This document shows positions 1 to 58,722 of a stretch of DNA of 64,000 bases, piece by piece. Under the pieces are notes generated by a model that searched no databases, was not told the origin of the DNA, and was given only the letters and a program-made list of their open reading frames with translations. A program made the position numbers and the translations under genes. Position 1 is the stretch's first letter; each line of letters begins with the position of its first letter. Origin of the DNA: Kiloniellaceae bacterium (lineage in GTDB: Bacteria > Pseudomonadota > Alphaproteobacteria > Kiloniellales > J153); contig JAJFGN010000042.1 of assembly GCA_021776115.1 (NCBI GenBank), positions 15,000 to 78,999 of the forward strand, in the 5' to 3' direction.

Positions 1-312
<312 letters not shown>

Positions 313-362
313 AGCCTATTCCTAGTTCCCCAATTCTCACGAGCTTAACCCCAGTCACAAAT

Positions 363-4053: not shown

Positions 4054-4236
4054 ATGGTTTCCAATGCCAAGCTGAAACGAATAGCAGGACCAGGCGCGGC
4101 CCTGGCCGCCGTGATCCTGCTAGCCACGGCCTGCGCCCAGATCGAACCCATGGAATATACCGAAATCCATGAAATCCAACCTGGGCCCGGCCTGTTATCC
4201 GGAAAAGATGGAGCCTTCGTTCTCTACGGAGATTAG
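4054..4236 (+). CDS. Small putative lipoprotein (60 aa)
   Basis: Lipobox-like LLATAC after a hydrophobic segment. GAGGA lies about 10 nt upstream of the ATG. No recognisable family. Confidence 0.4.
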   Translation: MVSNAKLKRIAGPGAALAAVILLATACAQIEPMEYTEIHEIQPGPGLLSGKDGAFVLYGD

Positions 4237-4458
4237 GTAAGCGCTCTAGAAAATCCTTCGGACGTCTCTCCCCGCTCGCCCCTTCGAGCCGATGCCTGGC
4301 TTGGAGGGGCATCTTTTTGGGGCGCGTTCAAATGCGAAGTCTCAACGGGATGTGATCGCTTGTGACTACTGCGCCGGACCGGGCCGCCTAATATATCACG
4401 AAAGGGTCACGACAGGGCCCCAGTGGCGAGTCCACGGTACGGAGGCGCGATCCGGTCG

Positions 4459-6094: not shown

Positions 6095-6260
6095 TCCGGC
6101 CAGCGGCGCCGGACTACAGAGATGCGTCATCACGCGAACGTGAAACACCTTGATTCTGCAAACCTTTTCCCGAACCGCTAGATTGGAGCGTGTCGCTGCG
6201 GCCGTGGAGCCGGGCATTTCATTTTTTGCTTTTAAGAGTTGAGGTAAGGGGAGGGACGTA

Positions 6261-7346
6261 ATGATCTCAAGAAAACGGGCGCTGTTGTCCAACACAGTGA
6301 TGCCCTTCGTGTTGTTTGCCGGTGTTGCGGCTGGGGGCGTGGTCCTGACGAACGGCACTGGAAGCGCCCCGGCGCTGGCCCAGTGCGCCGCGAAGAAAGT
6401 CAATCCCTGCGCGGCAGCGAAGGTCAATCCTTGCGCGGCAGCGAAGTGCAATCCTTGCGCGGCAGCGAAGTGCAACCCTTGCGCGGCAGCGAAGTGCAAT
6501 CCTTGCAATCCCTGTGCGGCCAAGGGCTGCAATCCCTGCAATCCCTGTGCGGCAGGTGGTGGTGGGTCCGCCAGCAAGGCGTGCTTCGTGCCCCGTTTGC
6601 GGACGGCGGCGAAATGCAATCCTTGCGCTGCTAAGAAATGCAACCCTTGCGCGGCCAAGGCGTGTAACCCGTGTAATCCTTGCGCCGCCAAGAAGTGCAA
6701 TCCTTGCGCGGCCTCGAAGTGCAATCCTTGTGCTGCCAAGGCTTGCAATCCGTGTAATCCTTGTGCGGCCAAGAAATGCAATCCCTGCAATCCTTGCGCG
6801 GCGAAGGCTTGCAACCCTTGCAACCCCTGTGGCGGGGCCGCCGCGCCGGAGCTGACGGATGCCGAGGCGGTGAAGGTCTACGACTGCTTGTTGAAGGAGC
6901 TTAAGTCGGCCTACGCCAAGTCGGGCAACAAGGTCGCGGTGTCCTACGCATCTTGGCCGCGCTACAGCAGGCGGGCCTATGTATCCGATACGCATGGCGG
7001 CCGCTTCGTTCAGAACTATGCGAACAAAACCGGCCGCGCCTATGGCGCTTTCGAAAACGCGGGAACCCTACCGGCCGGCACCGCCCTGGCAAAGCCCAGT
7101 TTCTCGGTGACCGGGGGCGGCAAGGTTTCCGTTGAACCCTTGTTCATCATGGAAAAAATGAAGGCGGGCTTCAATTCGGATAGCGACGATTGGCGCTATA
7201 CCATGGTTATGCCGAACGGCGCCGTCTTTGGAACCACCAAGGGCAAGGGCGCGGACAACGTCGAGTTCTGCATCGGCTGTCACATGTCGGTGACGCCGGA
7301 TCAGGATTCGGTCATGCTCCTGCCGGAGGAGTACCGGGTCCGCTAA
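6261..7346 (+). CDS. Cytochrome P460-family protein with N-terminal CNPC cysteine-repeat domain
   Basis: Signal peptide, then residues 42-190 made of AAK(x)CNPC / CNPCNPC units (34 Cys by my count). The C-terminal 160 aa are paralogous to the preceding gene ([59 protein letters not shown]). Confidence 0.8.
6384..6830 (+). repeat. Coding tandem repeats (21-nt and 30-nt units) encoding AAKxCNPC / AAKxCNPCNPC
   Basis: Repeated gcggcagcgaagtgcaatccttgc-type units are visible in the DNA. They also generate a long mirror ORF on the opposite strand (5786..6823). Confidence 0.9.
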
Positions 7347-7370
7347 TACCCGTCTGAAAAGGGATCGTTA

Positions 7371-7877
7371 TTGAGTCGCCTCCGCACCGCAGCCAGGGAC
7401 TCGGTAACCGCAATTCAAGGCCTGAGGCTTTGCGCGGTTACTGTCTGGCTGTCGGTGTTGGGGGCCCCGGCTCTGGCGGATTTCACCGATGGACTGGCCG
7501 CCTACGATGGCGGCGATTACCCAACAGCTTTCGAAGAATGGCGCGCGTTGGCGGAGGCGGGGGATGCCGAGGCCCAGGTCGCGCTGGCCAGCCTCTACCT
7601 CGCGGGCCAAGGCGTTCGGGCTGACGTCGGCGCCGGAATCTCCTGGTACCGCCGGGCCGCCGAGGCTGGGCATCCCGTCGCACAACTGAACCTCGGCGAC
7701 TTCTACAGCCGCGGCGCGGGCGTGCCGCGCGATTTGGTCACGGCCTATGTCTGGCTCAGCCTAGCCGCCGACCAAGGCCGCGCTTGGGCCGACCAGCGGC
7801 GTCAGGAGATCGCGCGCGAGATGTCGGGGGCGCAATTGGCGGAGGCCGAGGCGCGCGTCCTGGCGGAGCGTCCCTGA
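7371..7877 (+). CDS. Secreted Sel1-repeat (TPR-like) protein
   Basis: Three Sel1-like units (GDAEAQVALASLYLAGQGVRAD, GHPVAQLNLGDFYSRGAGVPRD, ...). Signal-like LRLCAVTVWLSVLGAPALA. Apparent TTG start. Confidence 0.75.
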   Translation: MSRLRTAARDSVTAIQGLRLCAVTVWLSVLGAPALADFTDGLAAYDGGDYPTAFEEWRALAEAGDAEAQVALASLYLAGQGVRADVGAGISWYRRAAEAGHPVAQLNLGDFYSRGAGVPRDLVTAYVWLSLAADQGRAWADQRRQEIAREMSGAQLAEAEARVLAERP

Positions 7878-7884
7878 GCCCTGC

Positions 7885-8585
7885 TTAAACCCCCAGGTAC
7901 CGCTCGCTCAAGCTGGGGTCGGCGGTGAGTTCGGCCGAGGTGCCCCGCCAAACCGCGCGGCCCTTTTCGATGATGGTGTGGCGGTTTGCGAAACGGGCCA
8001 GCGCGGCCACGTTCTTATCGATAACCAGGATCGCCAGCCCCGCCGCCTTGAGGGTTTCGAGCGTGCGCCAGATCTCCGCGCGCACCAGGGGCGCCAGACC
8101 TTCGGTCGCCTCGTCGAGGATGAGCAGCTTGGGATTGGTCATAAGCGCCCGGGCGATGGCCAGCATCTGTTGCTCGCCGCCGGAAAGCTGATCGCCCATA
8201 GCGTTCAGTCGCTCGTGCAGAACCGGGAACAGCGCCAGAACCCGCTCCAGGCTCCAGGCCGCCTCGCCACCAGGGGCCGGGCGCGCGGTAGCGACTAAAT
8301 TTTCGCGGACCGTCAAGTTGGGAAAAATCTGGCGTCCCTCGGGGACTAGGCCCAGGCCGGCGCGCGCGATTCGAAACGGGGCCAGGCCGGCGATATCCCG
8401 GCCCTCGAAATGCACCTGCCCGGCGCGTGGGGGCACCAGGCCCATGATCGCGCGCACGCTGGTGGTCTTGCCCATGCCGTTGCGCCCGAGCAGGGTGACT
8501 GCCTCGCCGGCGCCAACCGCGAGGTCGAGCCCGAAGAGGACCTGACTCTCGCCGTAGAAAACCTCGAGGCCCTGGACATTCAACA

Positions 8586-8586
<1 letters not shown>
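7885..8586 (-). CDS. livF: Branched-chain amino acid (HAAT family) ABC transporter ATP-binding protein LivF-type
   Basis: Walker A GRNGMGKTT, signature LSGGEQQML, Walker B LLILDE. 233 aa, last gene of a four-gene transporter operon. Confidence 0.88.
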
Positions 8587-9333
<747 letters not shown>

Positions 9334-9341
<8 letters not shown>

Positions 9342-10380
9342 GGCGGTCCAACTTCGCAGCGACGAGGCCCCACAGGCCCTGCTTCGCGAACAGAACCGCC
9401 AGGACCAGCAGCGGCCCGAAGATCACCATCCAATGCTGGGTCCATTGCGACAGGACTTCCTCCAACATGAAGAAGACCACCGCGCCGGCGAGCGGACCGA
9501 AGACCGTGCCCATGCCGCCCAGGACCACGATCACCAGGATCTCGCCGGAGCGCTGCCAGCTCAGGAACGCCGGACTAACGAACTCCGTGTGATTGACCAT
9601 GAGTGCGCCGGCCAGTCCCACGATCGCGCCGGAGATCACGAAGGCGGTGAGCTTGGTGCGGGTCGTGGCGAAGCCGAGTGCGCGCATGCGCCGCTCGTTG
9701 TCGCGGATGCCCTGAAGCGCCAGGCCGAAACGGGCGTTGGCCCAACGCGCGGTGGCGAGCAATGCGATCAGAACGAGGACCAGCACCAGGTAGTAGAACT
9801 GCGCCGGGTCGTGCAGGTCGAGCGGCCCCGCGGCCGAGCGTGAGAGCAGGCTGAGCCCATCGTCGCCGCCATAGGTCTCGAGCGAGACGAAGAAGAAGAA
9901 CAGCATTTGCGCGAAGGCCAGCGTGATCATGATGAAATAGAGTCCGCTGGTGCGCAGGCTGATCGCGCCGATGACGAGCGCGGCCAGGGCGCAGGCGAGC
10001 ATGGCGGCCGGCCAGGCCAGGATTGCTTGATCGGTTCCGGCAACCTCGAAGGGCCAGGTCATGAACGGCTCGCCCCTCATCTCGTGCCGGCTCAAGATCG
10101 CCACGACGTAGCCGCCCAGGCCGAAGAAGGCGGCGTGCCCGAAACTGATCATGCCGCCATAACCGAGGATGAGGTTCAGGCCGATCCCGGCCAGCGCCAA
10201 AATCAGAATCCGGGTCGCGATTCCGACCGCGTAATCCAGGCCCAAGGCCCCGGCCAGCAGAGGCAGTAGGAGCGCGAAGGCAAGGCCGCCGAACAGAAGG
10301 GCACGCCGCAAATTCAACTTTCCCTCTCCCGAGGGAGAGCATCTGTGTTGCTTGTCAAGGTGCGCTTTGGCCCTCGACAA
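9334..10380 (-). CDS. livM: HAAT-family ABC transporter permease LivM-type
   Basis: Polytopic membrane protein with the LNLILGYGGMISFGHAAFFGLGGY motif. The first ~20 codons of the ORF read through a REP-like hairpin, so the true start may be a TTG near 10317/10311. Confidence 0.85.
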
Positions 10381-10455: not shown

Positions 10456-11367
10456 TCAGCCATGGGCGGGGAACAGCCCGCGCGGGCGCCACACCAGGAC
10501 CGCGGCCATGAGGATATAGATCGCCATGGAGGCGAGGGCGGCGCCGACGCCGCTGGCCGCCGCCGGGCCCATCATCGCGCCGAACAGGCCGGGCAAGAAG
10601 GCGCGGCCCAGGGTATCGGCGGTCCCGACCAAGACCGCCCCGACCAGCGCCCCGCGGATCGAGCCGATGCCGCCGATGACGATGACCACGAAGGCGAGGA
10701 TCAGGACCGGCTCGCCCATGCCGGTCTCGACCGCATAGATCGGCCCGGCCATGACCCCGGCGAGCGCCGCCAGCATTGCCCCCAGCCCGAACACCAAGGT
10801 GTAGAGCCGTTTGATATCGACGCCCAGGGCCCCGACCATCTCGCGGTTCGAGGCTCCGGCGCGGATCAGCATGCCAAGGCGGGTGCGCGCGACCAGCCAA
10901 TAGAGGAACCCGGCGACGCCGAGGCCGAGGATCAGGATCGCCAGACGGAACGCGGGGTAGGGGGCGCCGGGCAGAATCTCGACCGCGCCCGACAGCCAGC
11001 TTGGCGGATCGAGGAACAGGGCGCGCGGGCCCCAGATCATGGCCACCGCCTCGTTGAAGAACAGGATCAGCCCGAAGGTCGCCAGCACCTGGTCCAGATG
11101 ATCGCGGTCATAGAGGTGGCGCAGCGCGATCGCCTCGACCGCGATGCCGACCAGCGCGGTTGCCGGTAGGGCGATCAAAAGGCCGAGCAGGAACGAGTCC
11201 GTCCACTGCGCGGCGCTGGCGGCGATGAAAGCCCCAACCATGTAGAGCGAGCCGTGCGCCAGATTGACCAGGTTCATGATCCCCAAGACCAGCGTCAGGC
11301 CGGCCGCCAGCAGGAACAGCATGACCCCAAGCTGCAAGCCGTTCAAAATCTGTTCGAGGAGGAGCAT
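10456..11367 (-). CDS. livH: HAAT-family ABC transporter permease LivH-type
   Basis: MLLLEQILNGLQLGVMLFLLAAGLTLVLGIMNLVNLAHGSLYMVGAF is a typical LivH N-terminus. 303 aa. Confidence 0.9.
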   Translation of the reverse strand: MLLLEQILNGLQLGVMLFLLAAGLTLVLGIMNLVNLAHGSLYMVGAFIAASAAQWTDSFLLGLLIALPATALVGIAVEAIALRHLYDRDHLDQVLATFGLILFFNEAVAMIWGPRALFLDPPSWLSGAVEILPGAPYPAFRLAILILGLGVAGFLYWLVARTRLGMLIRAGASNREMVGALGVDIKRLYTLVFGLGAMLAALAGVMAGPIYAVETGMGEPVLILAFVVIVIGGIGSIRGALVGAVLVGTADTLGRAFLPGLFGAMMGPAAASGVGAALASMAIYILMAAVLVWRPRGLFPAHG

Positions 11368-29915: not shown

Positions 29916-30125
29916 CTATGTTTTATCAATCGGAAGTTTGTTTCTAAGGATGTAACTATGGACAGCAGTTTATTTGATGGTTCACGGTCCATTGTCAACT
30001 GCGGTTATGGGTCAAAACCCCTTATAAACTGTGTATTTCCTTCCTTTCAGACTGCCGCGTAATAAAATATGCCTAAACTGGGGAATATTGTTGGTTTTAT
30101 TTCGTGAGTCGAAATGGTGGGGGAC

Positions 30126-30677
30126 ATGTCCGGTTTACTGATCGAGGCGGCGGCATCCTGTCTAGTCGCAGTCGATTTGCAGGAACGCCTGGCCCCTGCG
30201 ATATCGGGGCGGGACAAAGTGGTGCGCAAGGCCGCTCTCTTGCTGCGCGCCGCCGCGCGCCTGAAGGTGCCGGTTCTTCTGACCGAGCAGTACCCCAAAG
30301 GTTTGGGCGGCACCTTGCCGGAAATCCTTCAACTCGCGCCCGGTGCGGACAAGGTGGAGAAGATCGCCTTCTCTTCGCTTGCCGATCCGGGATTTCTAGA
30401 ACGCTATCGCGCGCTGGGCCGGCGCCAGGTGGTGTTGCTCGGCACCGAGGCGCACGTGTGCATGCTGCAGACCGGCCTAGACATGCTGAGCGACGGCGCC
30501 GCGCTCTTTGTCGTGGCGGACGCGGTCGGCTCGCGCGATCCGGCCGATGCGCGGGCGGCGCTGCAACGGCTGGAGCGGGCAGGGGCGACGATCGTGACCG
30601 CGGAGATGGTTGTGTTCGAGTGGCTGCGCCGCGCGGGCACGGAAGACTTTCGCCACCTGTTACGCTACATCAAGTAA
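30126..30677 (+). CDS. Isochorismatase-family cysteine hydrolase
   Basis: LVAVDLQERL..., VLLTEQYPKGLG, VVLLGTEAHVCMLQT (catalytic Cys context). About 183 aa. Confidence 0.8.
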   Translation: MSGLLIEAAASCLVAVDLQERLAPAISGRDKVVRKAALLLRAAARLKVPVLLTEQYPKGLGGTLPEILQLAPGADKVEKIAFSSLADPGFLERYRALGRRQVVLLGTEAHVCMLQTGLDMLSDGAALFVVADAVGSRDPADARAALQRLERAGATIVTAEMVVFEWLRRAGTEDFRHLLRYIK

Positions 30678-30724
30678 CGCTTGTTCAAGGGTGCGCCTTT
30701 CCCAATGACGTCTAGACCGACCGC

Positions 30725-41738: not shown

Positions 41739-41896
41739 GCCTACACGCCTCTTTTTGGCTAAACGACCGAAATATCTAGCAAAACAAGTCAGAGGAGTAG
41801 AGTTTTTTCTTTAACGTTCCGTTATTTGAACCCGTCAAAGTTGATGAACTTTTTGTGACGGGGCCTCTCATCCTGGGTGACCTGCGTCCTCCGGCG

Positions 41897-42157
41897 TTAG
41901 TAATCTTCCTCGTTCAGGAGCTTGCGCCACTCACCGAGCCAACTCAGCTCGTCCAGAAATACCATCATACGTACACATAAGGCAGCCGGATAGGGGATCG
42001 GCGAGGCGCCGGACGCCCAGCGCCGCACGGTTCTGTCGTTGATCCGCAGTTCTCGCGATAAGGCCGTTTGCCAACGATGGGCGCCGTATAGGCGGCTGCC
42101 ATGGCGGCGCAGCTCTTCCGCGGTCATGGGGCGTGGTTCACTCGGGTCGTTGGCCAT
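41897..42157 (-). CDS. Small putative helix-turn-helix protein (86 aa)
   Basis: WQTALSRELRINDRTVRRWASG resembles a Cro/antitoxin-type HTH. No confident family call. Confidence 0.5.
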   Translation of the reverse strand: MANDPSEPRPMTAEELRRHGSRLYGAHRWQTALSRELRINDRTVRRWASGASPIPYPAALCVRMMVFLDELSWLGEWRKLLNEEDY

Positions 42158-42378
42158 GGCGAATTTCCGCTAGCTGGTTGGTACCCTCCGGGCCGGGCAG
42201 GCTCAGCGAAGTTAGGGCGCCTGGTCCTAATTTTGTCTTATCCGAGCGTTGAATCCCAGGCGTTTCGGTGCAGGATCGTGGAGTAATTATTCGTTAGTAA
42301 ATGTAAACAAAAATTAGAAATTAACTAAGTATTAACCAAAAAAGCTGGGAAAAATAGAAAATTCGATATAATTTTCTA

Positions 42379-42407
42379 TTGATTTCGAAGAAGCCGGGGA
42401 TTACAAT
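42379..42407 (+). promoter_or_regulatory. Sigma-70-type promoter candidate TTGATT-N17-TACAAT
   Basis: -35 at 42379-42384 and -10 at 42402-42407 with exactly 17-bp spacing. It is embedded in a strongly AT-rich stretch (42290-42410). Confidence 0.4.
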
Positions 42408-42413
42408 TCCTTC

Positions 42414-42512
42414 ATTGCTTTCTCAGGTATCTGATCTGCGCAATCTTCTCCTCACTTAGCGCTCTCCAGAAGAAACGGGAGGCCGGAACGTTCCGGCCTC
42501 CCGAATTTCTTT
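42414..42512 (+). ncRNA. Candidate small RNA (~100 nt) between the promoter candidate and the terminator hairpin
   Basis: No ORF. Bounded by the promoter above and the 14-bp-stem hairpin at 42476-42503 plus AATTTCTTT. Contains a CUUCUCCUCA (anti-Shine-Dalgarno-like) stretch at 42446-42455. Confidence 0.3.
42476..42503. terminator. Perfect 28-nt palindrome cgggaggccggaac/gttccggcctcccg with T-rich flanks on both strands
   Basis: The plus strand is followed by aatttctttg and the minus strand by tttcttctgg. It could terminate the candidate sRNA on the plus strand, glnA read-through on the minus strand, or both. Confidence 0.55.
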
Positions 42513-42620
42513 GTAATCCCTTTACAATTGAAACCATCGGACACGCGGAGCCCGGCTCCGCGTGTCCGACGTAGGTCTGGACTAGTGTTCTGGAGCTGAA
42601 GTTCGCATCCTAATTCATTG

Positions 42621-42846
42621 CCGTCATCCCGGACGGTTAGAGCCTGCCCCCGACAGGATCGGGGGCGAGCCCGAAAATCGCCCGATTTTCGGCAGGTGAG
42701 CCTTACGATCCGGGATCCATGTATCCGCCTGTCCGACGCCCGGATTGCGGCGCGATGGATCCCGGATCACTGACTTTCCTTACCAAATCAGACCCCCGCT
42801 TTCGCGAGGGCATGGATTTGGAGGAAAGTCGCGTCCGGGATGACGG
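42621..42846. repeat. MITE-like element with 15-bp perfect terminal inverted repeats (ccgtcatcccggacg) and nested internal palindromes
   Basis: TIRs at 42621-42635 and 42832-42846. Inner inverted repeat gatccgggatccat (42707-42720) / atggatcccggatc (42755-42768), plus ccgaaaatcg/cgattttcgg at 42671-42692. It belongs to the same family as 363-500. Confidence 0.65.
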
Positions 42847-42881
42847 GGAAACTCAATGCCACCAATTTCTGTTCCACCACA

Positions 42882-52063: not shown

Positions 52064-52564
52064 TCAGCCCCCGGAGACGAGTTCGCCTTCGAGAATGAAA
52101 CGGCGATCCTTCGGCCCGGCGGCTTTGATCTGGAGCGAGCCAGCGCCCTTCATACCGGCGTACTGTCCGGTGCCGCCGACAATCTCCCAAAATCCGTAAT
52201 CGATTAGCTTCGGCTTACCTTTTTCGCCGGGCACGAAGATGGCGCGGACCAGCCATTTCACATAGGCCTTGCCACCCTTGGCATCGGTGAACTCGAGATA
52301 CCCGCGCGGATCGCCCCCGACCCCGGGAATGATATCGTGCATGCCCAGTTCCGTGACCGAGGCGCCGCTCAAGGGACCGTTACCCTTGGCCGTACCCTCG
52401 CGCCGGACCATGAGGACGAAATGCTTCGACCCGTCCTCGAAATTCATGCGCATGCTTTCCTTGGGGGTCAGGACGGCGTCGATTTTCATGGGCTCCGCGT
52501 GCGCGGCGGCCAGCCCAAGTCCAAAAACGAGTGTCGCGGCAAGCGCGGAAATCGTGAGTCTCAT
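52064..52564 (-). CDS. Secreted hypothetical protein (166 aa)
   Basis: The start at ATG 52564 is preceded by AGGGAGAA. Signal peptide MRLTISALAATLVFGLGLAAAHA. No family recognised. Confidence 0.6.
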   Translation of the reverse strand: MRLTISALAATLVFGLGLAAAHAEPMKIDAVLTPKESMRMNFEDGSKHFVLMVRREGTAKGNGPLSGASVTELGMHDIIPGVGGDPRGYLEFTDAKGGKAYVKWLVRAIFVPGEKGKPKLIDYGFWEIVGGTGQYAGMKGAGSLQIKAAGPKDRRFILEGELVSGG

Positions 52565-52662
52565 GGGTTCTCCCTGCATATTCGTGTTTTTGCATGTGAT
52601 GATGTACACGGATAACGCGCTGCCACCCAAATGTGGTGTCACTTTGGCGTGATCGATCTACG

Positions 52663-54165
52663 ATGCGCCCTATGGAGACCAGGGACTCTTTGTACGTTCT
52701 GGATACTGAGCAGATGTACCGGGCCGACGCCGCCGCCATAGCCGGTGGGGTTCCGGGTATGGCGCTGATGGAAAACGCTGGCCGCGCGGCCGCCGTGGCG
52801 CTTCGGGCAAGGTTCTCGCCTCGTTTGGCGGTTGTGTTCTGCGGGCCGGGCAACAACGGTGGCGATGGCTTCGTGGTCGCCCGGTGCTTGATGGACGCCG
52901 GTTGGCCGGTCCGTCTCGCCCTCTTGGGAAGGCCGGAAACCCTCAAGGGCGATGCGGCGCACCATGCCCGGCTTTGGACCGGACCGGTGGAGCCTCTGAC
53001 CTCGGATAACCTTCCGGCTTTGCTCCAGGACGCCGGCTTGGCCATCGACGCCTTGTTCGGCGCCGGCCTCGCCCGACCGTTGGAGGGCGCCGCCCGTGCG
53101 GCGGTCGAGGCGATCGAGGCGGCGGGTCTGCCGGTAGTGGCGATTGACGTGCCGAGCGGCCTATCGGGCGACAGCGGAGCGGTGCTTGGCGATACGGCGC
53201 TCAAGGCTGCACTGACCGTAACCTTCTTTCGCAAGAAACCCGGCCATCTGCTTCTGCCAGGACGATCTTTATGCGGCGAACTTGTGGTCGCGGATATCGG
53301 AATACCTCACGACGTCCTGCCCGGGATCGCGCCCTCGACGTTTGAGAACGCGCCGCCGCTGTGGGCCGACAGATATCCCTGGCGCGGGCCCGATAGCCAC
53401 AAGTACGACTTCGGCCACGCGCTGGTTCTCGGCGGTCCGGTCATGACGGGAGCCGGCCGCCTGGCGGCGCAGGCCGCGCTCCGGGTCGGCGCAGGGCTGG
53501 TCAGCGTGGCTTGCCCGCGCGTAGCGGTGCCCGTCTACGCCCAAGCCAGCCCCAGCCTGATCGTCTTGCCAAGCGACGCCGATGAGGATTTTGCGGATCT
53601 CTTGGCCGATCCCAGGCGCAACGCGGTTCTTATCGGACCCGGTCTGGGTCTTGGCGAGTCGACCCGAAGCCGGGTCTTGGCGGCACTCGGCGCCGGCAAG
53701 GCCATGGTTCTGGATGCCGACGCGCTGACCTCGTTCTCGCAGCGGCCCGCGGAGCTCTTCGGGGCGATAGCGGGAAACTGTGTCCTGACTCCGCACGAAG
53801 GGGAGTTTGCCCGCCTATTCCCGGATCTCCAGGGCGGCAAGTTAAGCCGGGCCCGGGCCGCCGCGGCCGCCAGCGGCGCCGTTGTGCTTCTGAAAGGCGG
53901 GGATACGGTCGTCGCAGCGCCGGATGGCCGGGCGGCGATCAATTGCAACGCGCCGCCAAGCCTGGCGATCGCTGGTGCAGGCGATGTCCTGGCGGGTCTT
54001 GTGGTGGGGCTGATGGCTCAGGGACTGGACGGCTTCGACGCCGCCTGTGCGGCTGTCTGGCTGCATGGGGAGGCCGGAGCTGCAGTGGGCCCGGGGCTAA
54101 TCGCCGATGATCTTCCTGCGGCTCTAGCGGTAGTTCTGCGCCGCTTAGCGAGGATGAGCCAATGA
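52663..54165 (+). CDS. nnr: Bifunctional NAD(P)H-hydrate repair enzyme (epimerase / ADP-dependent dehydratase)
   Basis: YjeF-N block (VFCGPGNNGGDGFVVAR) and a carbohydrate-kinase-like C-terminal domain (HKYDFGHALVLGG, VLTPHEGEF, GAGDVLAG). The start is uncertain (52633, 52663 or 52672). Confidence 0.9.
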   Translation: MRPMETRDSLYVLDTEQMYRADAAAIAGGVPGMALMENAGRAAAVALRARFSPRLAVVFCGPGNNGGDGFVVARCLMDAGWPVRLALLGRPETLKGDAAHHARLWTGPVEPLTSDNLPALLQDAGLAIDALFGAGLARPLEGAARAAVEAIEAAGLPVVAIDVPSGLSGDSGAVLGDTALKAALTVTFFRKKPGHLLLPGRSLCGELVVADIGIPHDVLPGIAPSTFENAPPLWADRYPWRGPDSHKYDFGHALVLGGPVMTGAGRLAAQAALRVGAGLVSVACPRVAVPVYAQASPSLIVLPSDADEDFADLLADPRRNAVLIGPGLGLGESTRSRVLAALGAGKAMVLDADALTSFSQRPAELFGAIAGNCVLTPHEGEFARLFPDLQGGKLSRARAAAAASGAVVLLKGGDTVVAAPDGRAAINCNAPPSLAIAGAGDVLAGLVVGLMAQGLDGFDAACAAVWLHGEAGAAVGPGLIADDLPAALAVVLRRLARMSQ

Positions 54166-54319
54166 GGCGCAATCCCGGGATCGGGCACACCGCCCAACGC
54201 GGCTGGCGGGCAAAATTCCGGCAGTGAAATGGGCCGATATCACTGAGAGTCGAGATAAATCTCTATTGGGCTTTGCTTGAATATAAAACTGAATTTCTAA
54301 ATAAATATACAGTATAAAT

Positions 54320-55363
54320 TTACTGTGTTACGGCTTTCATAAATAATCCAAAAATAAACATTACAAAAAGTAGAATATATGTATAGACTTGCGAAAACAC
54401 GTCGGTCAGAAAATCCTTCACAAACGATTTTATAGAAACACCGTTTCGCCGTTTTTGTTGTGTGGTGTTTGAAGTGTCTTCCCGGTCGTTAGCATTATTT
54501 GTAGATCTGTTTGTATAGGCGTTCGACATTGTTGTGTAAGAGCTCAAAAGCCTATGTTTTGGGGCATATTCTGAAATAGCGCTGGCCGAGCCTGACCTAT
54601 TGGCCAAGCCTAAACTGTTGGCCAGGCCTAAGCTATTGACCAGGCCTAAGCTGTTACCCGAGCCTGAGCTGTTGCCCGAGCCTGAGCTGTTTGTTGCAGG
54701 TCTTCCAGGCTTGATAAACACAAGATTACTCAGACTATTTTCAAGATTTCTGTCGAATGCGGATTTGGCTTTTCCCTGGGGCGATCCGAAAATTCCTTCG
54801 GCTGTATTTAGTATGGACTCAAAATATCTCAGACAATTTCCGATATTCGCCACGCGTGCGCCAATATCCGTCATGTGTGCTTTGACCTGGCCCAAATCCG
54901 ACGTATTGCCATTGGGCAGGCCCGCATCGGGGCTACCGCCGTTTGGCTCCGAAATCGCCCGATCCAAACCGGAACCCTCTCTGGGGGGCTCCAATAGGGG
55001 CTGCGAATCACTGTCGCGAGACAAACTGCCGGAAGGCTGGAAGGCCAAATTCCCGATTACGGCTCCGGATTCGGCATGCTCGCTCGATAGCTCCCCACCT
55101 ATTACATAGGAACTGGCGTCAGCATCACTGTACGATAAGCTGCAGGCGTCAGAGCTCAATCCCTCGTGCGACGACGTCAGTTGACCCACGAAGGGGTCGT
55201 GTGAACCGGGCTGCGATTGTCCGGAACCGTCATTGATCAAAGTCGCTTCGACAGCGTCCGGATAAAGGACAAACACAAACAGAGCGAATACGCAGACCGC
55301 TGCCCCGCCTCGCCGAGCGCAGTAGGGACCTTTACGTTTCCCCAAGGCGTGCCATTCCGTCAT
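54320..55363 (-). CDS. Hypothetical Ser/Gly/Asn-rich protein with N- and C-terminal hydrophobic segments, in an AT-rich island
   Basis: 347-aa ORF. N-terminal hydrophobic segment AAVCVFALFVFVLYP, C-terminal segment VYTYILLFVMFIFGLFM, and internal hexapeptide repeats SGSGNS/LGL(A/V)NS. Codon usage is visibly more AT-rich than in the flanking genes. Confidence 0.5.
   Translation of the reverse strand: MTEWHALGKRKGPYCARRGGAAVCVFALFVFVLYPDAVEATLINDGSGQSQPGSHDPFVGQLTSSHEGLSSDACSLSYSDADASSYVIGGELSSEHAESGAVIGNLAFQPSGSLSRDSDSQPLLEPPREGSGLDRAISEPNGGSPDAGLPNGNTSDLGQVKAHMTDIGARVANIGNCLRYFESILNTAEGIFGSPQGKAKSAFDRNLENSLSNLVFIKPGRPATNSSGSGNSSGSGNSLGLVNSLGLANSLGLANRSGSASAISEYAPKHRLLSSYTTMSNAYTNRSTNNANDREDTSNTTQQKRRNGVSIKSFVKDFLTDVFSQVYTYILLFVMFIFGLFMKAVTQ
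54581..54688. repeat. Six tandem 18-bp units (gttggccaggcctaagct-like)
   Basis: Read directly from the sequence. They encode the hexapeptide repeats of the island protein. Confidence 0.9.
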
Positions 55364-55872
55364 TCGTCTACCTAACTCAACGCCTGATACTGGCCACGAA
55401 AGGCGGTGCGTACCGTGAGTCCCGATTTACTCCAAGGTTTACCAACCTGGTGCCGACGGTAATCGCGACCCGATCAAAAATTACAGCAAAATAGTCGGGC
55501 AAAGTAAATCCAAATTACTGTTTAGCCGCAACTTGGACCTCAAGCTTTGGTGAACCTGACACTTCCCACATAACCGCAAAATCTACTCTGAAAGCCCGTT
55601 TTTGGCTATTTGGCGTGTCCGTAAGCCCGTTTGGCCAATTTTACCGTCATCCAGGCACACCCCTCCCATCTTTCCGGATAGCCGATACGGTAGCTGTTCT
55701 GCGCCATTTCGCGAGGATGCGTCAATTATAAGTAGAAATTATGCGATATTAACTCCCTCATAAGGTTACGGGGCGGCTTAACCTGTATTTAAACGTGGTG
55801 AGCCATAATTCGAGCCTAGGGTTAGCGCAAACCCTGCCCGCAGGGAGCGGGTCACGGTGAAAGGTATTCAAT

Positions 55873-56139
55873 ATGCTCGCGCTACAAGTCGGCCAATGGT
55901 TCAAAGGCGGTTCTCGACCCGACGATGTGAAGGTCGGGGCGGAATTTCGTAAGACTCGCCGGGGCAACATCGTCGAAATTGCCAAGGTGTTGGAAATCGC
56001 CCCCGATTGCATGGGCGTTCCCCATGTGCACTACAAAGTGTCGATCCAGAGCGCGCACCATGAGTGCTTCGAGGAGCAACGGACCCTAGGCCTCGACAGT
56101 TTCGCGGAACGCTTCGGTAAGGCTCTCGCTGCCGGCTGA
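55873..56139 (+). CDS. Hypothetical protein (88 aa)
   Basis: ORF only. Weak RBS, no family recognised, at the right edge of the AT-rich island. Confidence 0.3.
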   Translation: MLALQVGQWFKGGSRPDDVKVGAEFRKTRRGNIVEIAKVLEIAPDCMGVPHVHYKVSIQSAHHECFEEQRTLGLDSFAERFGKALAAG

Positions 56140-56286
56140 ACGCCAGTCCGCGCGTTTCTTCCCCAAGGGGCCGGTTTCCAACAAATCGATGCCAGTTGAC
56201 GTGCGTGCCCCCGGACCAGGGTTGCGGGGCTTGAGTGCGCCTCGATCGTCGGTAATCATGCCGGCGCATTGGGGAGGATCGAAGTT

Positions 56287-58722
56287 ATGGCGGACCCATC
56301 GGCGGCGGGACAAGATCGCGATCGGGCGACAGATCCGGCGCGCTTGGCTTGCTTGCGGGCGCTGGAGCGAAAGATCCTTTGGCTCTCCTCCTGGATCATC
56401 CATAACGCCAACCATATCCGGCCCAGTCGTGACGGTTTGAAAGTCGGCGGCCACCAGGCCTCCAGCGCCTCCCTAGCGACCCTGATGACCGCGCTTTATA
56501 TGGACGTGCTGCGGCCGCAGGACCGGGTCGCCGTTAAGCCGCATGCCAGTCCGGTGTTTCACGCCATTCAGTATCTGTTGGGTCAGCAAACGCGCGAAAA
56601 TTTGGAACGGTTCCGGGCCCTCGGCGGAGCCCAATCCTATCCCTCGCGGACCAAGGACGTGGACGACGTCGATTTCTCGACCGGCTCGGTCGGGATGGGC
56701 GTCGCGATGACCAGCTTCGCGAGCCTGGCACAGGACTATGTGCATCTGAAAGGTTGGGCGCCAGAGGGCCTGCCGGAAGGCCGCATGGTCGCTCTGGTCG
56801 GCGATGCCGAATTGGACGAGGGCAACGTCTACGAAGCCCTGTTCGAGGGCTGGAAGCACGACATTCAAAACGTCTGGTGGGTGATTGACTACAACCGGCA
56901 AAGTCTGGACGCCGTGGTCACGGACCGGCTGTTCGGCCGCATTGACGAGATGTTCTCGAACCTGGGTTGGCAGGTCGTGACCTTGAAGTATGGCGAACGC
57001 CTGCGCGCCGCCTTCGAACAGCCCGGCGGCGGGGCCTTGCGGCATTGGATCGACGATTGCCCGAACTCGCTCTACTCGGCCCTGGTGTTCCAGGGCGCGC
57101 CGGCCTGGCGCCGCCAGCTACGGGCCGATATCGGCGATGCGGCCGGTGTTCGCGCGCTTCTGGACGACCTCGACGATAAGTCCCTGGCCGGGCTGATGAC
57201 CAATCTGGCTGGACACGACATGGTCTCGGTCCTGGACGCTTTTCACGCCGTGCAAGACACCCGGCCGACCTGCTTCATCGCCTATACCATCAAGGGCTTG
57301 GGCCTGCCGTTCGCGGGACACAAGGACAACCACGCCGGTTTGATGAATCCGGCGCAGATGGATGAATTCAAACGTCTCAACGCCATTCCCGAGGGTGCGG
57401 AATGGGATCGTTTCGCGGGCTTGGATTTGCCGGCGGAGACCGTTCAAACCTTTCTTGACGAGGTGCCTTTCGCGGCCCGGCCACGCCGGCGCACCGGGGT
57501 GCCAGCGATCGCGGTACCGCCCGGCTTTCCGCGCCCTAAGGCTGAGATCATGTCGACCCAGGAAGGCTTTGGCCGGATCATGGCTGAGCTGGCGCGCGAC
57601 GGCGGCGCCTTGGCTGAGCGCATCGTGACGACCTCGCCGGACGTCACGGTCTCGACCAACCTGGGCGGATGGGTCAATCGCCGCGGCATCTTCGACCGGC
57701 ACCAACGAGAGGATGTCTTTAAGGAGCAAAAGGTCGTCTCCGCGCAGCGCTGGGGCATGTCGCCGGGCGGTCAGCACATCGAGCTCGGTATCGCCGAGAA
57801 CAACTTGTTCCTGCTGCTCGGCGCGTTGGGCCTCTCGCACTCCCTGTTCGGGACCCGGCTGCTGCCGGTCGGGACGCTGTACGACCCCTTCATTCAGCGC
57901 GGCTTGGATGCGCTCAATTACGCCTGCTATCAGGATGCCCGCTTCATGGTCGTCGCGACGCCGTCGGGTATAACCCTGGGTCCGGAGGGCGGGGCGCATC
58001 AGTCGATCTCGTCGCCGCTGATCGGCATGGCGCAGGATGGCCTGGCCAGCTTCGAACCGGCGTTCGCCGATGAGCTGGCGGCGATCATGGCCTGGGCCTT
58101 CGACTATATGCAGCGCGGCGGCGAGGAGGGGCGCGGCCCGACGCCCGGCCCGGCGAATTGGTTGCGCGATGCCGGCGGCGGTTCAGTCTATTTGCGGCTT
58201 TCCACGCGCCCCATTCCGCAAGTGGCACGCGCCATGCCGGCGGTCCTGGAAAATGCCGTCATCGCGGGCGGGTATTGGCTGCGCGAACCTGCGCGCGGGG
58301 CCGACTTGGCGATTGCCTATACAGGAGCGATCGCGCCAGAGGCCCTGGCGGCGCACGCGGCCATTGCCGAGGAGATTCCCGGCGCCGGGCTCTTGGCCGT
58401 GACCTCGGCCGATCGCTTGAACGCCGGCTGGCACGCGGCCGGGCGGGCCCGGCAGGCCGGCGATTCTAAGGCCCAAAGTCATGTCGAGCACCTGCTCGCG
58501 CCGCTCGATCCCGATGCCGGGCTGGTCACCGTGCTGGACGGCCATCCCACCGGCCTGTCGTGGCTGGGGGGTGTGTGCGGTCACACGGTTCAGGCCTTGG
58601 GTGTGGAGCATTTCGGGCAATCCGGCGATCTACCCGATCTCTATCGCAAGTATGGAATCGATAGTGAGGCGATCCTGGATGCTTGCGCCGCGGCCTGCTT
58701 GGCGCGAGTCCGGCGCCGCTAG
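56287..58722 (+). CDS. Thiamine-diphosphate enzyme of the homodimeric 2-oxoacid dehydrogenase E1 (AceE) / transketolase-like family
   Basis: Start ATG 56287 after GGGAGGA. GGHQASSASLATLMTALYMD and GDAELDEGNVYEA (TPP-binding GDG-like motif region). Large C-terminal transketolase-like domains. No E2/E3 genes are adjacent. Confidence 0.8.
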   Translation: MADPSAAGQDRDRATDPARLACLRALERKILWLSSWIIHNANHIRPSRDGLKVGGHQASSASLATLMTALYMDVLRPQDRVAVKPHASPVFHAIQYLLGQQTRENLERFRALGGAQSYPSRTKDVDDVDFSTGSVGMGVAMTSFASLAQDYVHLKGWAPEGLPEGRMVALVGDAELDEGNVYEALFEGWKHDIQNVWWVIDYNRQSLDAVVTDRLFGRIDEMFSNLGWQVVTLKYGERLRAAFEQPGGGALRHWIDDCPNSLYSALVFQGAPAWRRQLRADIGDAAGVRALLDDLDDKSLAGLMTNLAGHDMVSVLDAFHAVQDTRPTCFIAYTIKGLGLPFAGHKDNHAGLMNPAQMDEFKRLNAIPEGAEWDRFAGLDLPAETVQTFLDEVPFAARPRRRTGVPAIAVPPGFPRPKAEIMSTQEGFGRIMAELARDGGALAERIVTTSPDVTVSTNLGGWVNRRGIFDRHQREDVFKEQKVVSAQRWGMSPGGQHIELGIAENNLFLLLGALGLSHSLFGTRLLPVGTLYDPFIQRGLDALNYACYQDARFMVVATPSGITLGPEGGAHQSISSPLIGMAQDGLASFEPAFADELAAIMAWAFDYMQRGGEEGRGPTPGPANWLRDAGGGSVYLRLSTRPIPQVARAMPAVLENAVIAGGYWLREPARGADLAIAYTGAIAPEALAAHAAIAEEIPGAGLLAVTSADRLNAGWHAAGRARQAGDSKAQSHVEHLLAPLDPDAGLVTVLDGHPTGLSWLGGVCGHTVQALGVEHFGQSGDLPDLYRKYGIDSEAILDACAAACLARVRRR

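Follow-up and report, generated by a model that had tools for sequence, protein, structure and literature searches.

A 1.56-kb insert at nnr, situated within the 64-kb window (by which we mean the whole stretch of DNA analyzed), probably carries one real gene, ORF347, for an exported, membrane-tethered, and fast-evolving protein of a family that we call X. By sequence comparison, window positions 54164-55726 are shown to be a single-gene genomic islet that is inserted in a lineage-specific manner at the end of nnr. The analysis also defines a protein family that no database names. The coordinates of the features are collected in Table 1.

Table 1. Features of the islet and its borders, in window positions
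Feature	Positions	Strand	Basis or remark
Left direct-repeat copy	54128-54163	+	Functional last 12 codons of nnr (...AVVLRRLARMSQ*); stop at 54163-54165
Inserted DNA (islet proper, ~1.52 kb; 1563 bp from repeat to repeat)	54164-55687	.	Absent from all related genomes
3' flank of the ORF347 gene	54166-54319	-	~100 nt very AT-rich, then a 55-nt GC-rich end
ORF347, coding gene of the rare unnamed family X, 347 aa	54320-55363	-	Homologues, conserved blocks, ORF length
C-terminal membrane helix (predicted), codons 326-345	54329-54388	-	Hydropathy, alignment, AF2
In-frame minisatellite, 18-bp unit, 6.1 copies, 83% matches	54583-54691	-	Tandem Repeats Finder
Conserved central amphipathic helix (AR.aNI.NC..Y...L), codons 156-192	54788-54898	-	Alignments A2 and A8; AF2 helix 156-192
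Predicted Sec signal peptide, codons 1-40: basic n-region, hydrophobic core, V-E-A|T site	55244-55363	-	Hydropathy, alignment
Island-borne upstream region	55364-55687	-	Conserved with L087; putative promoter and operator, by conservation
Right direct-repeat copy	55688-55726	+	Displaced, now non-coding nnr tail (...VAVLRHFARMRQL*), contiguous with the ancestral spacer
Ancestral nnr-orf88 intergenic spacer	55727-55872	+	Intact, right of the insertion

Insertion at the end of nnr

To place the island in context, the preliminary description had proposed comparing the nnr/E1 junction in relatives, and there a short spacer is found with no insert. Specifically, nnr and orf88 are separated by 117-230 bp in 13 of 13 related genomes versus 1,707 bp in the window, and no trace of the ORF347 gene lies between them at any of the 13 related loci. 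Similarity to the loci L001, L002, and L003 ends at 54123-54148 and restarts at 55707-55777 (with L002 at 55707), and the ancestral spacer together with the downstream orf88 is 79-84% identical to the same segment in these three. Here, the E1 identity to the window is 0.86-0.89 for L001-L003 and 0.76-0.79 for L004 and beyond, and because the window nests among the former, a single gain is the most parsimonious history.

More conspicuously, the final 36-39 nt of nnr stand on both sides of the insert as an imperfect direct repeat, whose position coincides exactly with the boundaries obtained from the comparisons. Local alignment of the two flanks gave a score of 38, which none of 500 shuffles reached (mean 19, maximum 32), and the repeat search returned family D3 (31 nt, 84% identical, with a spacing of 1563). 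Moreover, both copies of the nnr tail carry derived residues (ARM.Q) that are absent from relatives, which, at the sequence level, agrees with duplication in situ as well as with a very close donor and thus leaves the candidate mechanisms of insertion undistinguished. The surroundings consist of core genes and include no recombinase; annotation of the flanks from 49.2 to 62.8 kb (i.e., part of the 64-kb window) identified two response regulators, glnA, a molybdopterin oxidoreductase, nnr, an E1-like TPP enzyme, tig, clpP, and clpX, with tRNA-Leu among them. The horizontal acquisition that had been proposed for this DNA is thus borne out by a lineage-specific insertion, which is absent from 13 related loci and has a duplicated nnr tail at its flanks.

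Family X

A search among ~15 billion proteins found 12 homologues of ORF347, which makes 13 sequences with ORF347 included, all of them singletons. Word-indexed protein searches, with the whole protein or with alignment A2, were swamped by low-complexity words and returned nothing or P0005 alone; the members were recovered through an exhaustive HMMER scan, giving 8 homologue clusters (E 2e-34 to 1e-4), and a profile without the linkers, giving 3 more. In fact, phmmer matched ORF347 to P0001 over residues 1-342 (E = 2.4e-34), and the family profile, of which ORF347 is itself a part, scores it at 5e-124. ORF347 fits family X by its full-length similarity and by the same order of blocks, which runs from the signal peptide through PF(L/V).QL...C, the central AR..NI..C..Y..LL helix, and K.t.K.F..(D/E)(I/V)FS..YTY to the membrane helix and a basic tail. 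Invariant in alignments A2 and A8 are A40, C74, R170, C177, K312, and Y327.

Sequence searches with ORF347 of Pfam, NCBIfam, PHROGs, PADLOC, and the PDB gave nothing significant, the best being chance matches (E 0.047-1.2), and there was no NCBIfam or Pfam match at E <= 1; the other members of alignment A2 likewise had nothing significant in Pfam, NCBIfam, PADLOC, or the PDB sequences. No further members were found in the JGI metagenome contigs and viral contigs scanned, and a check of the window and of the loci fetched by then gave no paralogues of X. The X genes are solitary, each with its own upstream region, and stand between unrelated housekeeping genes in four contexts with no conserved partner gene. 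By these searches, family X is very rare and alphaproteobacterial and is without a name or Pfam domain.

Fast evolution had been suggested for this DNA, and the orthologues agree: in syntenic positions those of X are only 23-40% identical, versus 72-87% for the Aldolase_II and GATase genes on their two sides, and at the RNR locus X is 42% and its neighbour 82% identical. The dN/dS ratio is 0.155 for one pair of homologues, P0011 and P0012. Thus, on sequence comparison, X orthologues are shown to diverge several times faster than their neighbours yet stay under purifying selection.

Protein architecture and predicted topology

The preliminary description had noted two hydrophobic segments, one N-terminal and one at the C-terminal end, and hydropathy places these at residues ~20-38 and ~326-345 of ORF347, the second stopping 2 residues before the end. 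The composition is 14.4% Ser, 10.7% Gly, and 6.9% Asn. In the predicted signal peptide, 9 of 9 aligned members share the invariant Ala40 (-1) and have a small residue or Val at -3, and a helix of the AF2 model (16-33) falls within this peptide. We rejected Tat export, for which a near-invariant twin-arginine motif (S/T-R-R-x-F-L-K) in the n-region was the criterion; RR is present in ORF347, P0002, P0006, and P0007 but missing in P0001, P0005, and P0008, and no TAT-signal model matched. The central helix contains the invariant Arg170 and Cys177 (the other invariant cysteine, Cys74, is encoded at 55142-55144), and its codons show the best nucleotide-level conservation with L083, L086, and L087. 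At the C-terminal end, the membrane helix is preceded by the conserved K.s.K.F..D.FS..YTY motif with the invariant K312 and Y327, and by several Lys and Arg on the supposed periplasmic side, a point against the predicted topology, and is followed by a short basic tail in all members, which in ORF347 is a 2-residue end. Two AlphaFold2 models, from 9- and 13-sequence alignments, gave isolated helices and no fold (pLDDT 39.8 and 43.6), and the helices 311-323 and 326-346 form the sole segment with a pLDDT above 60.

With this layout, the ORF347 product would be exported by Sec and cut by signal peptidase I after Ala40, and the mature chain of ~307 residues would be held at the inner membrane by its C-terminal helix. 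The bulk of the protein would then be in the periplasm, and the part reaching the cytoplasm would be a very short C-terminal end. A predicted disulfide between C74 and C177 would link the PF(L/V).QL motif of the N-terminal part with the central amphipathic helix, and the two low-complexity linkers would serve as flexible, length-variable spacers, one of them recently expanded by the 18-bp minisatellite. Moreover, the strong conservation of the juxtamembrane and membrane segment suggests that the protein docks onto a partner in the membrane. Overall, the ORF347 product is probably a non-enzymatic, rapidly diversifying tether or spacer protein of the envelope. The earlier view that this is not an enzyme is supported, in that the product, with its export signal, its disordered linkers, and its anchor at the C-terminus, looks like an envelope protein. 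The surface, organelle-scaffold, or adhesin role proposed with it is unsupported, and the predicted topology is periplasmic with a tether to the inner membrane.

Among known proteins, u-spanins (phage T1 gp11 type) are alike in having an N-terminal export signal, a periplasmic middle, and a membrane helix at the extreme C-terminus. They are ~130 aa long, have a lipobox Cys, and occur in phage lysis cassettes; family X, in contrast, has no conserved lipobox, is 290-350 aa long with disordered linkers, and is in no phage context, and ORF347 had no significant PHROG match.

An alternative, which we consider unlikely, is that the product is displayed at the cell surface or released, with its C-terminus acting as a sorting signal cut by a processing enzyme. 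Much as in the PEP-CTERM/exosortase, GlyGly-CTERM/rhombosortase, and LPXTG/sortase systems, the very end of a predicted Sec-exported, low-complexity protein (rich in Ser, Gly, Asn, and Thr) here has a short conserved motif that leads through a hydrophobic helix to a basic tail; the extreme rate of divergence is typical of exposed proteins, and a role of this kind would suit both that rate and the earlier adhesin-like idea. However, no sorting-signal model of NCBIfam or Pfam matches any of the 9 members scanned, and a profile of the C-terminus finds family members alone among the 15,332 ORFs of the window and fetched loci (with 64 kb plus ~21 kb of sequence from carrier genomes), so that, unlike those systems, the (D/E)(I/V)FS..YTY motif is confined to family X among the ORFs scanned. 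No partner enzyme was found, there being no sortase-like gene beside any member in the contexts fetched.

Possible routes of insertion

As for the insertion itself, the comparisons show that, on the terminal branch to this Kiloniellaceae-like genome, ~1.56 kb entered nnr within its last 36-39 nt, such that a near-copy of the nnr tail now completes nnr, with the displaced tail at the far end beside the untouched ancestral spacer. One candidate route is integration at a specific site by way of an att-like repeat, after which the remainder of the element would have been lost, and another is one-sided homologous recombination with the nnr of a close relative. Among features that could explain the insertion, we found no recombinase, no inverted repeats, no tRNA target, and no attC-like site: the one ORF of the insert shows no recombinase similarity and the genes annotated from 49.2 to 62.8 kb are housekeeping genes, the tRNA scan of the island gave no tRNA, and Rfam had no match (E <= 1) in 53500-56800. 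Sliding identity to L001-L003 revealed no clear donor-recipient step in nnr divergence, because these relatives are too distant (70-85% nt identity).

Integrase-mediated genomic islands, and the cis-mobilizable elements (CIMEs) derived from them by loss of the integrase, enter a gene at its 3' end and restore it by means of an att-type direct repeat. The islet resembles them in that it occupies the final codons of a conserved gene, leaves that gene with a near-native C-terminus, is atypical in composition and codon usage, and is missing from close relatives. As with att-type sites, imperfect direct repeats of the gene tail (54128-54163 and 55688-55726) stand at both comparative boundaries. In contrast to such islands, it is 1.56 kb with one cargo gene, has no integrase, excisionase, or relaxase in or near it, targets a protein-coding gene rather than a tRNA, and has a repeat that is 84% identical with identical runs of 9-10 nt at most; the same picture would be expected from one-sided homologous recombination with a close relative.

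Two other kinds of element were considered and rejected. An IS or MITE would be expected to end in inverted repeats, to have duplicated only 2-15 bp of its target, and to occur in several copies; here, we found no terminal inverted repeats at the boundaries, a duplication of 36-39 nt, a single copy in the window, and a unique upstream motif. For an integron cassette, there is no attC (no Rfam match) and no integrase gene nearby, and the unit has its own upstream region.

It is conceivable, though we give it little credence, that the ~1.5 kb of upstream region and gene X form a trans-mobilised module with a rapidly diversifying envelope cargo under arms-race selection. In Kiloniellales-type bacteria, such a module would move between the 3' ends of genes and sites close to tRNAs, occupying nnr here, a position beside tRNA-Gln in OFTM296, and different positions elsewhere; its cargo could, for instance, determine interactions with phages or hosts, and a new signal for sorting or docking might reside in the conserved C-terminus. 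In the OFTM296 locus (L083, the second Kiloniellaceae copy), the family X gene is 390 nt from tRNA-Gln, and the flanking repeat around this copy is not significant (175 of 500 shuffles reach its score).

It is improbable that the gene was ancestral at nnr and precisely deleted in all relatives, with the AT-rich segment an old resident. Recombination between the nnr-tail repeats would indeed excise exactly this segment, and family X is old and vertically inherited at other loci, but the 13 of 13 relatives that have nnr and orf88 and lack the gene fall on both sides of the window in E1 identity, no family X member adjoins nnr at any other locus, the flanking repeat itself implies an insertion event, and the GC3 of the gene is unlike that of the host.

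Composition of the island and its coding content

An AT-rich island had been described here, and both windowed GC and a CAI-like measure do deviate. In 300-nt windows, GC drops from about 0.62 to 0.33-0.50 over 54.1-55.9 kb, being 0.33-0.36 at ~54.2-54.5 kb and <=0.58 up to ~55.9 kb, whereas the window mean outside the island is 0.62 (sd 0.05, minimum 0.41). The lowest-GC 1-kb bins of the window are 54001-55000 (0.499) and 55001-56000 (0.532), and the inserted DNA proper has a GC of 0.50. ORF347 has the least host-like codon usage among the real genes in the window (CAI-like z = -3.0), with a GC3 of 0.53 versus 0.69-0.79 in its neighbours. The only ORF with a lower CAI-like value, 30104-30715, was rejected as a real gene, being a shadow frame of 30114-30677. 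Elsewhere in the window, further GC dips occur at 2.4-2.9, 22.4-22.7, 29.8-30.2, 41.6-42.6, and 61.3-61.6 kb, all of them short, and the three examined (2.4-2.9, 29.8-30.2, and 41.6-42.6 kb) are mainly intergenic DNA.

The low GC of the gene's 3' third is common to 6 of 6 homologues checked, including those that match their hosts in composition, and is thus a family trait, while the low GC3 is unusual for this genome. AT-richness here has two sources, one being the family-wide low-GC 3' third with its Asn, Lys, Ser, Thr, Ile, Phe, and Tyr codons, and the other the mismatch of GC3 with that of the host. Because the first of these is a family trait, AT-richness alone is no proof of foreign origin, which is shown by the sequence comparisons instead.

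Two details of the preliminary description need amending. The island does not abut the E1-like gene, as a conserved 88-aa gene (orf88, 55873-56139) lies in between, and what was read as 500 geneless bp upstream of the ORF is a composite of 510 bp with three distinct parts, namely ~325 bp of island DNA, the 39-nt displaced nnr tail, and ~145 bp of the ancestral nnr-orf88 spacer. Here, the island part includes a conserved and, by that conservation, putatively regulatory region. An SD-like AGGTAG stands 6-11 nt before the ORF347 ATG, and this motif, the start codon, and the N-terminus are conserved among homologues. Further upstream are a putative promoter-like TTTACT-17 nt-TGTAAT (+ strand, 55480-55508) and a direct repeat, AAACGGGCTT(A/T)C, with copies 31 nt apart (55587-55601 and 55618-55632). 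Moreover, ~200 nt of this non-coding DNA (55474-55675) is 58-70% identical to L087, equal to the best coding blocks, with one block (55626-55676) reaching 81%, and the conserved region stops ~12 nt or less from the flanking repeat. No conserved small upstream ORF was found, the candidate matches being rejected as nucleotide conservation because several frames match at once, and a conserved RNA structure in this region is unsupported; folding of three sequences together over 242 columns gave a consensus energy of -14.4 kcal/mol with a covariation term of -0.77. In the 3' flank, we found no canonical terminator and no similarity to any other locus. As a whole, the insert carries one complete expression unit, made up of the ~320-nt upstream region with its conserved block and the 347-codon gene.

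That ORF347 is spurious or a dead remnant, in AT-rich non-coding or decaying foreign DNA, is very improbable. GC is flat across its codon positions (0.50, 0.49, and 0.53), and it has no database name, no domain, much low complexity, and no canonical terminator. However, this sole long ORF of the island has a stop-free run of 368 codons, where 2000 block shuffles average 121 and never exceed 286, it has full-length homologues with invariant residues and matching termini in a family under purifying selection, and its upstream region and ribosome-binding motif are conserved.

The 18-bp minisatellite

The six hexapeptides that had been read from six 18-bp units were recovered with identical sequences by Tandem Repeats Finder (SGSGNS, SGSGNS, LGLVNS, LGLANS, LGLANR, and SGSASA). 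The array sits in the hypervariable second linker, where homologues are gapped or have different low-complexity sequence and P0001 has a 27-nt duplication of its own; the hexapeptide repeats are, by alignment, not a trait of family X. Within the array, only 1 nt distinguishes the two copies that lie closest to the gene's 5' end. Such an array, with its 18-bp in-frame unit in 6 copies, placed in the most variable part of a fast-evolving protein that is predicted to be exported, is like the minisatellites in variable genes for envelope or surface proteins, but unlike these, it shows no copy-number polymorphism between assemblies, the only other one (Logan) being identical.

A loose likeness to LG-repeat membrane proteins had also been raised, and there is scarcely any likelihood that ORF347 encodes a magnetosome-type protein of this sort or another organelle scaffold. 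It has three LGLxNS units and a hydrophobic segment, and so resembles Mms6, MamG, and MamD in having tandem Leu-Gly dipeptides in a protein with a membrane segment, but the three units are point-mutated SGSGNS copies of a single Ser-Gly minisatellite, they lie in the soluble linker ~65 residues before the membrane helix and not within it, and they are absent from all homologues. Moreover, ORF347 has no homology to these proteins and no sequence match to any family, and the annotated flanking genes (part of the 64-kb window) are ordinary core genes with no magnetosome genes among them.

The same independent Logan assembly, on which the same gene is called, bears on whether foreign reads were joined into the contig: although the source is probably a metagenome bin and the Logan contig changes to related sequence past 56411, an assembly chimera is scarcely credible either, as the second assembler gives both junctions with 0 mismatches over 52244-56411, and a duplicated nnr tail exactly at the boundaries is not expected from a chimera.

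Biological meaning

The islet itself is ordinary in kind, being small and lineage-specific with one accessory gene. Its before-and-after comparison, in which a 1.5-kb gene unit has come to lie in the tail of a housekeeping gene with no recombinase nearby, offers a test case for the origin of small islets. In family X, a clear export-and-anchor architecture, as predicted, is combined with fast divergence under purifying selection, a pairing that typifies envelope proteins in contact with phages, hosts, or competitors, and the family is a reasonable target for work on marine Kiloniellales-like bacteria.

Insertion at the nnr tail

A one-genome-per-species scan with the E1-like protein identified 80 loci, of which the closest (86-89% identity) come from Kiloniellaceae MAGs. 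In 13 of these loci, the 88-residue gene orf88 lies 117-230 bp after nnr, and no trace of ORF347 was found in this interval in any of the 13; the equivalent interval in the window spans 1,707 bp. Nucleotide similarity to the related loci L001, L002, and L003 ends at window positions 54123-54148 and restarts at 55707-55777, and exactly at these boundaries we observed an imperfect direct repeat, which shows 84% identity over 31 nt when ungapped and extends to 36-39 nt if one in-frame 3-nt indel is allowed. Its local-alignment score of 38 was reached in 0 of 500 shuffles (mean 19, maximum 32). The preliminary description had proposed horizontally acquired or fast-evolving DNA and pointed to the nnr/E1 junction in relatives as a check; the 13 empty sites and the duplicated nnr tail now establish an insertion here, and the ORF347 family (family X) does diverge fast. 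E1 identity places the window among L001-L003 (0.86-0.89), the loci from L004 on reaching 0.76-0.79, and a single gain on its own branch is therefore parsimonious.

Moreover, an independent assembly contig (Logan, SRR15505516) is identical over window positions 52244-56411, both junctions included, and so an assembly chimera is unlikely. This contig matches the window for 4168 nt and then carries 83 mismatches in its final 382 nt, inside the E1-like gene, as if the assembly graph had switched there to a related, co-occurring strain or species.

As to how the DNA arrived, ARM.Q is common to both nnr-tail copies and absent from L001-L003, and the left copy thus originated in this lineage or in one very closely related to it. 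The insert is surrounded by core genes (glnA, nnr, the E1-like TPP enzyme, tRNA-Leu, tig, clpP, and clpX), and neither inverted terminal repeats, a tRNA, an Rfam element, nor a recombinase was found in or beside it. Site-specific integration into the nnr tail via att-like repeats, either with mobilization in trans or with the remainder of the element lost later, could account for the rebuilt end of nnr and for the stretches of 9-10 identical nt in the repeats, but no recombinase was found. Alternatively, a close relative whose nnr had a family X gene downstream may have supplied the DNA by one-sided homologous recombination, with an illegitimate join lying 36-39 nt ahead of the stop codon in the recipient; such an event would fit repeat copies that are 84% identical, but no donor arrangement is known and there is no clear divergence step along nnr. 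A third possibility is a long target duplication that diverged later, although its length would be unusual.

Features of the window and of related loci
Sequence	Feature	Position	Strand	Remark
Window	Low-GC stretch	41740-42880		~1.1 kb
Window	86-aa ORF	41897-42157	-	function unassigned
Window	Left repeat copy	54128-54163		last 12 codons of nnr (...VVLRRLARMSQ*)
Window	ORF347	54320-55363	-	347 aa
Window	18-bp repeat units	54583-54691		6.1 copies
Window	Upstream DNA brought in with gene	55364-55687		
Window	Block similar to L087	55474-55675		58-70% identity
Window	Promoter-like sequence	55480-55508	+	
Window	Right repeat copy, displaced nnr tail	55688-55726		still reads ...VAVLRHFARMRQL*; joins ancestral spacer
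Window	Ancestral spacer	55727-55872		
Window	orf88	55873-56139	+	88 aa
Window	E1-like gene	56269-58722	+	
L001	Sensor-kinase-like gene	6856-8883		675 aa
L002	ORF	8099-8950		283 aa
L081 (Logan contig)	Mismatched end	4169-4550		window 56412-56793
L083	P0001 site	9535-9608, 10589-10642		AT-rich patch
L086	Ribonucleotide reductase gene	6057-9497		beside P0002
L092	P0011 start region	2238-2450		
L093	P0012 start region	136-354		

Neighboring genes

The AT-rich island had been placed between nnr and the E1-like gene, which holds on the nnr side only, given that orf88 intervenes on the other. This gene is kept just 3' of nnr, on the side of the E1-like gene, in 13 Kiloniellales-type loci (34-92% identity), and gave no Pfam, NCBIfam, or PHROG match. 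The spacer between orf88 and the E1-like gene also varies among close relatives: nothing is there in the window and L003, a sensor-kinase-like gene (kinase motifs recognized by eye) is found in L001, and another ORF in L002. Genes thus seem to be gained and lost readily in this neighborhood. The E1-like protein itself, widely conserved in Alphaproteobacteria (the 80 loci), scores 157 bits against the aceE model (cut-off 860) and has only weak transketolase and PDH-E1 domain matches; it belongs to a divergent family of TPP-dependent enzymes and is not a canonical pyruvate dehydrogenase E1.

Composition and codon usage

In 300-nt windows, GC drops to a minimum of 0.33-0.36 at ~54.2-54.5 kb and remains at or below 0.58 as far as ~55.9 kb, with a mean of 0.62 (sd 0.05, minimum 0.41) outside the island. 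Among the 64 1-kb bins, the two covering 54-56 kb have the lowest GC (0.499 and 0.532), and the AT-rich region of ~1.7 kb already recognized next to nnr is the strongest composition anomaly in the window. Codon usage, suggested earlier as a further check, is likewise atypical, with ORF347 (CAI-like z = -3.0) the least host-like among the real genes. Its GC by codon position is 0.50, 0.49, and 0.53, as against a GC3 of 0.69-0.79 for the neighbors. The last third of the gene lies 0.12-0.21 below the first third in GC in 6 of 6 homologue genes measured, and ORF347 follows the same trend toward its 3' end by codon position; the island signal is therefore partly intrinsic to the gene, given that Asn, Lys, Ser, Thr, Ile, Phe, and Tyr abound in the C-terminal third of its product. 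Here, the two Kiloniellaceae copies, ORF347 and P0001, are extreme in low 3' GC (0.36 for the last third of P0001, and 0.36-0.41 in 300-nt windows at the 3' end in the window), and the GC3 of both is un-host-like (0.47-0.53). Elsewhere in the window, another low-GC stretch (minimum 0.41), mostly non-coding and containing an 86-aa ORF, lies between a response-regulator gene and glnA.

ORF347 and the architecture of family X

ORF347 is the sole long ORF in the island, and its stop-free run of 368 codons is longer than any obtained when the island was block-shuffled 2000 times (mean 121, maximum 286). Kyte-Doolittle peaks at residues ~20-38 and 326-345, the second ending two residues ahead of the stop, match the N- and C-terminal hydrophobic segments described before. 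The low-complexity linkers made word-indexed searches unproductive; an exhaustive HMMER scan across 1.84 billion representatives gave eight proteins of 292-318 aa (E 2e-34 to 1e-4, 26-37% identity), and a linker-free profile search three more. The eight homologues looked up are singletons or pairs within a collection of ~15 billion sequences, are named only 'hypothetical protein', and have no Pfam domains. For any family X member tested, searches of Pfam, NCBIfam, PHROGs, PADLOC, and PDB sequences returned nothing.

Across the alignment, the order of blocks is fixed. A basic n-region and hydrophobic core leading to (V/A/G)-x-A, with Ala40 invariant, is followed by a PF(L/V)FQL motif leading to the invariant Cys74, a variable first linker, the helix AR.aNI.NC..YL..LL with Arg170 and Cys177 invariant, and a variable second linker. 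At the extreme C-terminus, K.t.K.F..(D/E)(I/V)FS..YTY(V/I)L leads into a hydrophobic helix followed by a short basic tail. For one pair of homologues with DNA available, dN/dS is 0.155 at a dS of ~1.1. Moreover, ORF347 and its nearest homologues have in common an SD-like (T/G)AGGTA 6-13 nt ahead of the ATG and an N-terminal MT.W motif. ORF347 is a real, selected gene and not mere noncoding DNA, as the homologues, the invariant residues, and the dN/dS in the family demonstrate. AlphaFold2 models from 9- and 13-sequence alignments reached a pLDDT of 40-44 and contain isolated helices only (signal, central, juxtamembrane, and membrane).

In P0011 and P0012, the called starts (MLILGPE...) come directly after the predicted signal-peptide cleavage site, and the open frame continues upstream to encode the missing signal peptide (...EPAAA|M); hence, both database entries are N-terminally truncated gene calls.

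Hexapeptide repeats

Tandem Repeats Finder recovered the 18-bp units, and their in-frame reading reproduces the six hexapeptides reported earlier (SGSGNS, SGSGNS, LGLVNS, LGLANS, LGLANR, and SGSASA). They sit in the second linker, at positions for which homologues show gaps or unrelated low-complexity sequence (GSGSRGSGSQGSG in P0004), and the same linker of P0001 contains a 27-nt tandem duplication of its own. The sub-types, ...GAGCCTGAGCTGT (SGSGN) and ...AGGCCTAAGCT(A/G)T (LGL.N), are set apart by point substitutions, TCA to TTA for example, and the two SGSGN units nearest the 5' end of the gene are 1 base apart. The Leu-Gly units have therefore arisen recently from a Ser-Gly minisatellite within a soluble linker, and are neither a family feature nor a membrane motif. 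The suggested likeness to LG-repeat membrane proteins is not supported, and we found no basis for relating ORF347 to the magnetosome LG-repeat proteins, to which it does not belong.

Upstream region

The 500 bp upstream of ORF347 had been described as free of genes; the 510 bp between its ATG and orf88 is in fact a composite of three segments (see table). One block is as similar to the region upstream of P0003 (L087) as the best coding blocks, despite a protein identity of only 37%. The motif CTGGATGACGGTAAAATTGGC, unique within the window, is identical in L087, and a promoter-like TTTAC(T/A)-17 nt-T(G/C)(T/A)AAT is common to the window, L086 (the P0002 locus), and L087. Together with two copies, 31 nt apart, of the direct repeat AAACGGGCTT(A/T)C, we infer a putative promoter with regulator-binding sites. 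No conserved small ORF, conserved RNA structure, or Rfam family was found in this region. The conserved block stops within ~12 nt of the right repeat, so that the insert consists essentially of the gene and its control region.

Genomic contexts and divergence of family X

Four contexts were recognized for family X, in each of which the gene stands alone, flanked by unrelated housekeeping genes. Aldolase_II / X / GATase (P0007 and P0008, with the partial contexts of P0004, P0005, and P0011 consistent) is a stable syntenic position, in which the GC3 of the two genes measured (P0004 and P0005, 0.75-0.78) looks host-like. The others are ribonucleotide reductase / X / acyltransferase (P0002, with the partly unannotated neighbors of P0003 consistent), Ppx-GppA, tRNA-Gln / X / DUF4864 (P0001), and nnr / X / orf88, found in the window only. 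The P0001 genome, the OFTM296 MAG, is also that of L003, whose nnr/orf88 site is empty. There, P0001 lies 390 nt downstream of tRNA-Gln(CTG) in another AT-rich patch (GC 0.38-0.41), and no significant repeat flanks it in L083. The reductase gene beside P0002 has intein-splicing and LAGLIDADG endonuclease matches, and is thus intein-containing.

At five Aldolase_II / X / GATase loci (L085, L088, L090, L091, and L092), the X proteins are 23-40% identical, whereas both flanking genes are 72-87% identical; at the reductase locus, these values are 42% and 82%. Family X therefore evolves several times faster than its neighbors, a rate gap that is unusually large for adjoining genes. Similarly, ORF347 and P0001 share 34% identity, while nnr, orf88, and E1 of the same two genomes share 73%, 92%, and 86%.

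Proposed role

Based on the -3/-1 rule for Sec signals, on hydropathy, on the positive charges that follow the last helix, and on cysteines conserved only in the exported part, family X proteins are probably non-enzymatic, rapidly diversifying envelope proteins tethered to the membrane in the periplasm. More tentatively, the precursor might be exported by Sec and cleaved after Ala40, leaving the C-terminal helix to hold the mature chain in the inner membrane, with the body of the protein in the periplasm. A C74-C177 disulfide would link the central helix to the N-terminal motif, both disordered linkers would serve as adjustable spacers, and the strongly conserved juxtamembrane and membrane segment might contact a membrane partner. 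The main rival reading, in which the C-terminus is instead a sorting signal and the protein becomes surface-located or is released, is improbable: none of the known sorting models matches, and in the limited sequence available the tag was not found on a second protein; the likeness to C-terminal sorting signals is in layout only, and that to u-spanins in end-to-end topology only.

The islet, which resembles integrase-less island derivatives, is small and lineage-specific, with one accessory envelope gene, and is ordinary in kind. More noteworthy is family X itself, without a database name or domain, extremely rare, and unusually fast-evolving.
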